A stretch of 64,000 nt of DNA from NCBI GenBank assembly GCA_053919585.1, contig CM132804.1. One strand, written 5' to 3'. This DNA comes from Euprymna scolopes (Eukaryota). How positions within the stretch are numbered: the stretch's first letter is position 1; the number at the start of each line of letters is the position of its first letter. The position numbers and the translations under genes were made by a program. The notes beneath the pieces are model-generated. The model was not told where the DNA came from. It saw only the letters and a list, made by a program, of their open reading frames with translations, and did not search any database. Positions 24,930-27,900 of this stretch are shown piece after piece.

Positions 24930-27900
24930 TTATTCAGGGAGGAGGCTATGTCTACCTCGCCGCCGTCTCCGGGGTGCACAACTTCGACAATACCATTTCT
25001 GTCTGGCAGGAGGTGGAGACTCGATTCCCACACACTGGAAGTGACACCAGTCATCACATCCGTCGCAACAGATCATGTCCTGATCACCTTGTGGAGAACC
25101 GCATATAGGACAAAGCCACATTACTTCGTTGGCAGGTGTTGATTGAGAAGGAATAACGTTAATCCCATCCTCAGGCCTATCAACAGGTGCAGGTATGGAT
25201 CCATCTTGATCCTCTCCACTTAAGGATAATTCAAGGGGGAATAGGTTTTTTAACGCACCGCACCCCCCCTCTTTTACCCTGGCAGACCTGACTACCCCAT
25301 CGTCTCCGTAAAACATCTCCAAAATGATCCCAAGAACCCAAAACGGCCCAGGCTTATGTGGGCCCCTCACCACTACCACATCTCCAACCTTTAATCTGTT
25401 TTGGAAGGGCACTCTAGAACGCCCCTGGGGTTTCTCCCAGAGGCTCAACAGGTACTCATTATACCACAGAGTGCAGAAACTCTCCAGTCACTGGTCCCGA
25501 AACTGCATGGTCCTGAGCAGCCTTTCTCGGCTGGGTGGGAGGCAAAATCCTCATTGTTCAGATCTAAAAGCAACCCAGGACTCTTATTAGGCCGCAAAAC
25601 ATGTTAGGAGTTACTGCCTCTAACTCTTTCTCTGTAGATTCTCGATAAGTCAGAGGGCGGTTATTGATAGCTCGTTGGATATCCGATATGATGGTAAGTA
25701 ACGAAAAATAATCCATCTCACCTCTACCAACCACCTTGTAAAGACAATTCTTAATTGTCTGGATACTCCTCCCAAACACCTCCCACCCAAGGTGAGTAAA
25801 GTGGAATGGGGCAGAACTTAATAGAACAGGAGCCAAACTTCTGTTGGTAATGATGGTTTAGCATCAACCTTTTAAACAATCGACCGCCTCCTACGAAAGT
25901 TTTAGCATTATCACCGTAGATGGTAGACGGGATGCCATACAGGTTCGTGAACCGCACCAATGCCTGCAGAAAGGCCAACACACTCATGTCAGGTAGCACT
26001 TCGATGTGTATAGCTCTGACACTGAGACACGTGAAGATCAGTAGATACATTTTCACCTCCTTACCACCTTGCCTAACCCAAAGGTGACCGGTGAAATCCA
26101 CTCCCGTATGCTTGAAGGGAACTTCCAGTTCAATACGGGATACGGGTAGGTTAGCTACATTGGGTGGCAAGACTTGTCTGGCATTGTACCTTCGGCACAG
26201 TGCGCATGAAGTAAGGATCGTCTTCACTGCCTGTCTGCCTTTTGGCACCCAGTAACCACAACGTCTCAGTTCCGCTAAAGTGGATGCAATCCCTAAGTGC
26301 TGACACCTAGCATGCGCATCCATTATGATAAGCCTGGTAATCGGGTGACTCTTTGCCAACAGAATAGGGTGTTTAACCTCCCTGCTAAACTGGAGAGATC
26401 TACCAATTCTGCCACCTGACCTGATTAGACCTTCATCATCAATAAACAAATCAAGGTCCCGCACCAACCCAGGTACCGTCTTGCCCGAGGGACCTAGCAA
26501 AAAATCTAGTTCCCCAGCATATACCTGGCGTTGCATCGTCCGCATAAGCAAAACTGCTGCCAGTTTTTCACTGTCGACTTCTAACCGACGCAAGCGATTG
26601 ATAAATTTCAGGACTAAGGAAGTCACTCTTAAGAGTTTATTAAATGAATAGAACCTTTTCAGGGGCAGAACAGTAGGTGTTTCCTCTCCATGGAGGATCG
26701 CAGCATTCCAAGACGCACGAGCTATACATTGGCTGCGTTTGTTGAGGCACGGTAAGTCTTGAGTAGCCCAAGGAGTGGTGCCGCCACTCAACCAACAAAG
26801 ACCATAGCACCAGAATTGGAAGCAGGTTTTGAACCTTTCCAGCGTCATTCCCCTTGTGATCAAATCAGCAGGGTTCTCCAACATTGGGATGTACCGAAAT
26901 GAGGGATACAAGCTGAGAGTGGCTTCCAATTCAACGCTCATCTGCTGGATATCCTTTAGCCTATTTCGGGCAAACAGGTTCTTGCTCGCGATGGTCCCCG
27001 AGATAAGCAAAGAAAGGACCACTTAAGAATCTGTGGCCACGTGAATTTCAGAAGGAGTGAATCCTCGAAAATTTCTTAGAATCTAGGTAGGCACTTCATG
27101 GCCAGGAACACAACCATGAGCCCCAGAGTAGGAAGTGTTTTCTTTTTCAAAGGAGCCACCCTAGCTTTGGCAAATACCAAACAAGATCGACACTTCTGAA
27201 CCACATATGCCGCGAACCCATAGACTTCCGGGGAGGCGTCACAAAATAGGAAGAGTTCGCCAGGTTCACCTTCACTGAGTGTCCTACGGGGAAAGGAAAT
27301 GGTCCCCAATCCAGAAAGATCTGAAGAAAGTTTCTTCCATAAGGAAAAAAATTCAGGTGGAACCGGCACATCCCACCCTAATCCTTTCTCCCAAAGCCTG
27401 CTTAGCAGAATTCGACCTCGCAATGAAACAGGCAAGCACAACGATAAAGGATCATAGACTCTCGCGGTCTCCCCGAGAATTTGTCTTTTAGTAGAAGCAT
27501 CAGGGTTGCACTCAACTGCAGCCAATCCAAGGATGTCGGAGAGAGGACAGTACCGATAACCAAGTACCTTTTCCCAACCACTGCCATGGACACCCAGTGT
27601 ACCATGCTCCTCCATCTTGCTTCGAATTCCTGCATGGTCAGAATTACATGACTGCAGTTCGAAGCCTCCCTGATGTAACCGCTCCCGAGAGAGTGTGTAT
27701 AATCCACACAGCTCTTCTGGACTATCACCAGACATGATGAGATTATCCACATAAAAACGATTTTACATCATAAACCTGCAGTTATCCATAGGAAACTGTG
27801 CAGCATGATACCGGAGAACATAGTTTAAAATAAATGGACTGGAAGCAAACCCAAAAATGATTGTGTTGTACCTAAAACGACGTAGTCGTTCACCGTCCTT

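Follow-up and report, generated by a model that had tools for sequence, protein, structure and literature searches.

The window analysed here, a stretch of 64,000 nucleotides of Euprymna scolopes DNA (contig CM132804.1, assembly GCA_053919585.1), carries on its minus strand a BEL/Pao LTR retrotransposon in which a PHD finger lies behind the C-terminal part of the integrase. The features of this element are:

24424..24427, no strand: one half of the target-site duplication, degenerate, 4 bp (partner 29305-29308, 3/4 letters matching)
24428..24809, minus strand: 3' LTR (TG...CA), 382 bp, adjoined by a polypurine tract at ~24810-24830
24930-25487, minus strand: ORF of 185 aa with DUF5641 and PHD in a single frame, stop codon at 24930-24932
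24930..24977, minus strand: basic tail and stop, conserved between subfamilies; candidate NLS, AT-hook-like motif or polybasic region
24978..25118, minus strand: C4HC3 PHD finger of TAF3 type, cage Trp to final Cys (Pfam PHD; TAF3 in the PDB)
25119..25217, minus strand: Pro/acidic linker, 33 aa, fast-evolving (pN) and predicted to be disordered (model of a relative)
25218..25487, minus strand: DUF5641, SH3/Tudor-like barrel at the integrase C-terminus (Pfam E 1.4e-8; low-confidence model)
25564..27022, minus strand: integrase (H2C2 zinc finger, DDE core), interrupted (Integrase_H2C2 E 1.3e-8)
27076..28514, minus strand: reverse transcriptase and Pao-type RNase H (Peptidase_A17, E 6e-31), interrupted
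28518..29167, minus strand: protease region and end of gag (alignment to the related copy L046)
29168..29304, minus strand: 5' LTR remnant, 96.4% identical to the 3' LTR over 137 bp

The assignment to BEL/Pao, made originally from the letters of the sequence, is borne out by the Pao-type domains found with Pfam. So too is the in-frame PHD downstream of DUF5641: within the 185 aa ORF, DUF5641 is matched at residues 2-72 (E 1.4e-8) and PHD at residues 126-170 (E 1.2e-11, 44.9 bits against a cut-off of 24). The finger is complete, with 8/8 C4HC3 ligands, and is followed, as had been described, by an Arg-rich tail (five Arg, Gly-Arg and six more residues) and a stop codon 120 bp from the 3' LTR. 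An RRGRP-type motif is present in the basic tail of most relatives, but the identification of this tail as an AT-hook was rejected, as no AT-hook match was found with Pfam at E 10 in 5/5 tails.

The window copy had been noted as frameshifted, and its pol is indeed fragmented across at least six frames. Its alignment with L046 extends over 4.7 kb at 93.8% identity and is interrupted by a jump at 29167/29168. Here the window copy lacks ~1.3 kb that L046 has, a stretch that takes in the primer site, the start of gag and the greater part of the 5' LTR. The 137 bp remnant of the 5' LTR directly abuts the protease region, and most of gag has thus been deleted. This copy is a decayed, dead BEL/Pao element.

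Such decay would be in keeping with a PHD carried along neutrally, or with a junction that arose by chance in this one copy. That explanation, highly improbable now, is refuted by the unbroken polyproteins found elsewhere, by purifying selection on the PHD, and by the presence of the fusion in the 5.9 Gb host genome, where the fusion query had a match in 150/150 scored of 3,334 candidates. Among the 150 Pfam PHD matches listed there are 46 stop-free frames of 1,765-1,799 aa, and dozens of copies have a single unbroken Gag-Pol-PHD frame. Intact members with integrase, DUF5641 and PHD in one ORF, for which a search had been suggested, thus exist: in 4/4 PHD-bearing full-length polyproteins scanned the domain order is DUF1759, Peptidase_A17, Integrase_H2C2, DUF5641, PHD, with a reverse transcriptase match (RVT_1) also present in 3/4. 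An N-terminal PHD, the position given for BEL/Pao in the original prediction, was present in none of five full-length polyproteins scanned with Pfam.

The 41 copies with the full ligand set fall into seven subfamilies with 46-76% DNA identity, and there are five further PHD groups (L107, a 1904 aa family, the tandem-PHD families L178 and L109, and the P0045 family). The fusion is a trait of the lineage, with at least 12 subfamilies in the host genome. LTR pairs in the youngest groups are 99-100% identical, and the PHD-bearing family is both large and recently active. In the two tandem families (L178:1409-7222 and L109:5900-6928) the second finger is without a cage Trp. RNA reads from two runs are mostly at <2x depth inside the element (maximum ~4x) and on both strands, a reading that is neutral on expression. 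Database matches do not establish breadth across species, several of them being the host genome's own families (P0003 97%, P0008 99.6%, P0017 98%, P0045 99%). Presence in other species is only hinted at by P0013, with a best match of 48% among the scored candidates of the host genome and the sole match shown to be without a close counterpart among them.

Selection was assessed between subfamilies. In 21/21 subfamily pairs the PHD has a pN of 0.08-0.34 against a pS of 0.45-1.02, the pN being slightly lowered by the picking of copies for intact ligands (8/47 sites), and dN/dS is about 0.06 and 0.18 between the window's subfamily and its two nearest. These values indicate that the PHD is under purifying selection, the absence of which had been named as evidence against a role for it. 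The corresponding pN is 0.08-0.40 for DUF5641 and 0.30-0.79 for the linker; the conservation of the PHD equals that of the integrase tail, while the linker drifts.

In its LTRs, its one gag-pol frame, its PR-RT-RH-IN order, and its DUF1759, Peptidase_A17 and DUF5641 domains, the element is similar to ordinary BEL/Pao elements (Belpaoviridae, PMC8742986). It differs from them in the PHD. In the relatives nearest to it the C-terminus consists of a linker and a short basic tail, without a PHD; BEL C-termini of this kind made up most of the matches in a profile search of 1.84 billion proteins, those with a PHD being a minority. PHD-less families are present in the host genome as well, including a 1,840 aa sister family that has 13 unbroken copies; the LTR pair is identical in the one copy compared, and transposition therefore does not require the PHD. 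The best pol tree has 28 rows, and the 10 with a PHD all fall on one side of a branch that has weak support (60/52) and comprises two firm subclades. Given this support, and an earlier quick tree that required two changes, a single capture of the PHD would be compatible with the data.

The LTRs (~280-510 bp) and elements (6-7.5 kb) are inside the limits of Belpaoviridae (LTRs 0.2-1.2 kb, element 4.2-10 kb), and there is a polypurine tract before the 3' LTR, as in BEL/Pao. The target duplication, usually 5-6 bp in BEL/Pao, differs in the present clade, being an exact 4 bp repeat in 7/8 full elements and in L178. It was rejected as a PHD-linked trait, as the PHD-less L198 also has 4 bp. In two families of the BEL clade the LTR ends are TA...TA, not TG...CA (clade loci L031, L032, L035, L037, L039, L178, L179, and L198), and the bases after the 5' LTR in the clade, where Belpaoviridae have an 18 nt primer site that matches tRNA-Arg or tRNA-Gly, do not start with the usual TGG.

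It had been proposed that the PHD closely resembles that of TAF3, and TAF3 does appear to be the closest known PHD, both from its place as top PDB match and from the names of PHD-only matches. TAF3 is the first PDB match for 3/3 element PHDs (E 1.6e-14 for the window, 1.7e-22, and 4e-19), and the next PDB families (E 2e-7, 2e-8, and 1e-8) lie 7-14 orders of magnitude behind; in the case of the window PHD, the second-ranked family is MLL5 (E 2.4e-7). The name TAF3 is carried by 11/12 PHD-only matches, and 5/14 of the multi-PHD matches scanned from the profile search have the TAF3 histone fold. Some eukaryotic TAF3 proteins with the histone fold have two or three PHD fingers (P0023, P0027, P0032, P0054, P0151).

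The host TAF3 gene, missed by pattern and protein searches and located by walking from its histone-fold exon, is on C28. A 7.5 kb intron interrupts the PHD of this gene, whereas the element PHDs have no intron and the element has no histone fold. Capture from an mRNA would fit the absent intron, although any later reverse transcription would lead to the same absence. Element PHDs share 22-28/48 residues with host TAF3. The PHD of L105 shares 35/48 with shark TAF3 and 28/48 with host TAF3; horizontal transfer from a vertebrate is not claimed, because 48 residues with uneven rates cannot show transfer. Between the window PHD and host TAF3 only 23/51 residues are identical, no more than between an ING-like PHD and host TAF3. 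In a PHD tree of 98 rows and 51 columns there is no resolved placement of the element PHDs next to TAF3, and one of them, that of L073, is grouped with non-TAF3 PHDs at 100/93. TAF3 is the probable donor, a call that comes mainly from the sister subfamilies. PHDs are described as widespread in retrotransposons and their origin as hard to trace (PMC6673714); the likeness seen here points to TAF3 as the origin of the present one. At L082:988-2142, in CpG-rich DNA, there is a long frame of one exon that encodes a Bromo_TP histone fold and is presumably SUPT7L-like.

In mouse TAF3 the H3K4me3 cage is described as D877, M882, W868, and W891, with H3R2 bound via D889 or E905 (PMC12238850). The Trp/Met/Trp residues to which the original prediction had drawn attention (equivalents of W868, M882, and W891) are all kept in the window and in 10/10 first or single PHDs of the host-genome subfamilies. 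The element finger shares with the TAF3 PHD (PDB 2k16, 5wxh) its fold, the W-M-W cage, D889, and a basic tail. In the predicted model of a relative, which is of low confidence (pLDDT 58, with the linker at <50), the PHD superimposes on TAF3 with an rmsd of 1.2 A over 48-49 residues, and DUF5641 matches SH3/Tudor barrels (Z 7-9, maximum 9.1).

There are also differences from TAF3. In the window's clade the D877 position is Gln or Pro (Gln in the window copy), P881 is Asp, and the acidic loop is basic, while W894 is replaced by Phe in 15/15 element PHDs. Elsewhere the D877 position is Asp (the 1904 aa and 1938 aa families) or Glu (one subfamily). The loss of D877, the basic loop, and the Phe, together with the loss of W868 from the second PHDs of the tandem families and the report that the polybasic tail of TAF3 binds phosphoinositides independently of H3K4me3 (PMC4429956), would be expected if the finger of the window's clade and its Arg-rich tail had drifted to bind DNA, nuclear phosphoinositides, or a non-histone partner, and not methyl-K4. 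This is quite unlikely, as W868, M882, I883, D889, and W891 are fixed across saturated synonymous divergence and as D877 has been reported to contact H3 Thr6 rather than the methyl-lysine (PMC4589357).

The original prediction also held that the PHD may steer integration to H3K4me3-marked chromatin. This was assessed from the 3' flanks of insertions by GC and CpG over 1.5-2 kb, a blunt proxy. The discovery set contained 35/40 sites of the 1,776-1,798 aa family (four without an LTR end by the rule and one tandem were left out) and 18 sites of the double-PHD family, with 13/15 PHD-less sites and 20 random sites as controls. The replication set contained 62 further PHD sites, including two mis-called junctions and one duplicate, with 5/12 new PHD-less sites and 28 random sites. 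Neither GC nor CpG over 1.5-2 kb differs between the 115 PHD flanks and the 48 random sites, and CpG-rich windows are present in 16/115 and 7/48, respectively. There is no shared target site among 53 flanks, and young copies are found in ordinary repeat-rich DNA, microsatellites included. CpG density is 24-66 per kb in the two host promoters examined and 22-25 per kb in the background, so that insertion is unlikely to be strongly directed to promoters rich in CpG. The test is nevertheless a weak one, because these promoters differ only modestly from each other and from the background, and weaker or non-genic targeting would be compatible with the flank data.

Two apparent signals were rejected. 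In the discovery set PHD sites seemed post hoc to avoid CpG-depleted DNA (3/53, against 6/13 PHD-less sites, p=0.001, and 4/20 random sites, p=0.08). Fixed as a hypothesis before the replication set, this avoidance (CpG o/e <0.6) was not replicated against random sites (11/62 against 7/28, p=0.57) or PHD-less sites (11/62 against 2/5, p=0.25), and avoidance was rejected as unproven. A higher repeat cover of the flanks (0.41 against 0.22) was gone with an unbiased database (p=0.46).

Steering to H3K4me3 by the PHD is a hypothesis to which the compositional test gave no support. That the PHD reads this mark and directs integration to it overlaps with the tethering explanation given below, and is at present a tentative proposal. 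It would be in keeping with the kept cage, which in the 1904 aa and 1938 aa families includes D877, and with a small excess of CpG in the first 500 bp at PHD sites of the discovery set (26 against 22 per kb, p=0.02 uncorrected), and the modest distinctness of promoters from background leaves room for it. It has against it the CpG signal that was not replicated and the young copies in repeat-rich DNA. To be reconciled with the flanks, it would call for a germline mark largely on repeat-derived or AT-rich DNA, indistinct by base composition, or for rapid removal of promoter insertions by selection. That the PHD is strongly selected, with no detectable site bias, could also mean that the finger binds chromatin for general tethering (retention on chromosomes through division, or in the nucleus) or for the element's own transcription, rather than for site choice. 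The same alternative was raised for CopiaMBD by De Mendoza et al. (PMC6673714). It is unlikely here, since the PHD is at the end of the integrase, where known readers, as described there, act on targeting.

The reading preferred for the observed fusion, its spread, the selection on the PHD, its TAF3 likeness, and its kept cage is that a functional reader of the H3 tail is attached to the integrase by a flexible arm and tethers the integration complex to K4-methylated nucleosomes, a reading to which a probability of roughly 0.6 is given. An ancestral BEL/Pao element would have acquired the last part of a host TAF3 message, probably during reverse transcription, with the TAF3 PHD becoming joined in frame behind the C-terminal barrel of the integrase. 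On its flexible linker the PHD may hold the N-terminal H3 tail methylated on Lys4, presumably staying on the mature integrase, while the basic tail may serve nuclear import or DNA contact. As a result of this tethering, insertions may fall preferentially in K4-methylated chromatin, though with no strong preference for gene promoters.

The analogy drawn originally was with the chromoviruses, in which a chromodomain is at the C-terminus of a Ty3/Gypsy integrase (Gao et al. 2008, as cited in PMC6673714). In both, the integrase of an LTR retrotransposon ends in a domain of a type that reads histone marks. The chromoviral chromodomain reads heterochromatin and its targeting has been shown, whereas the PHD is of a type that reads an active mark and its targeting is hypothetical. 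The present element is not a chromovirus, its pol being Pao-type and not Ty3/Gypsy, with a PHD in the place of the chromodomain. CopiaMBD of centipedes and spiders is, like this element, an LTR element that took up a chromatin reader from its host, the donor of which can be traced; it differs in being a Copia element with a methyl-CpG reader, for which binding and a flank bias are reported (PMC6673714), while the flanks here are without bias. In Ginger1-9_HM a PHD is likewise C-terminal to a Gypsy-like integrase, but this is a DNA transposon with Ulp1 and PHD and without LTRs or reverse transcriptase (PMC2836005).

No BEL/Pao element with a C-terminal PHD was found in searches of the published literature. 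The term 'PHD' is absent from the main text of the BEL/Pao surveys PMC3118150, PMC6238403, and PMC8556966, and from the ICTV Belpaoviridae profile (PMC8742986). PHD domains are mentioned in bioRxiv 10.1101/2021.11.30.470311 and PMC5408684, which, with their supplements and like Repbase and GyDB, could hold this architecture. The general design, a reader on the end of an integrase, is already known; the BEL/Pao version with DUF5641 and PHD was not found in print.

The integrase-borne readers of shown function, chromodomain and MBD, point to silent chromatin, whereas a finger captured from TAF3 would be a pointer to active chromatin, with a donor gene that can be traced. To our knowledge, almost nothing is known of target choice in BEL/Pao. 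In the present genome there are both many young families with the PHD and a young sister family without it. If binding holds, the element fingers would be natural variants of a domain that is used as an H3K4me3 probe (PMC4802638). That a metazoan retrotransposon lineage took the promoter-recognition module of TFIID and now integrates at H3K4me3 nucleosomes by means of it is a possible but somewhat doubtful extension. If this is true, the lineage would encode its own equivalent of the tethers that host factors provide to retroviruses, and the retuned cages, doubled fingers, and PHD-less sister would be a natural series relating reader affinity to target choice.

The 3' LTRs of the BEL elements have themselves been the site of insertions. 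A two-ORF non-LTR retrotransposon (CCHC ORF1; endonuclease-RT ORF2 of 1,157 aa), which we take to be Tx1-like, is inserted in them at six separate loci in three subfamilies (L036:7302, L126, L151, L178:7834 with L258, L183, and L041). The insert is in the orientation of its host BEL element and lies ~170-210 bp inside the LTR; at L178 there is a duplication of 13-14 bp. Among the examined loci its matches are confined to these LTRs, other than a short match in L107, which makes it a candidate LTR-specific parasite.

In the window itself, a decayed endonuclease-RT LINE is just past the 5' end of the BEL/Pao element (29600-32300, plus strand), with other copies near 16400-16900, 51000-51500, and 55300. 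A 54 bp tandem array is present at 13200-16300, with an inverted block at ~13318-13588, and two pairs of inverted repeats, 201 and 175 bp long, lie at 41956-42390 and 40367-44437, respectively, and are possibly the ends of DNA transposons.
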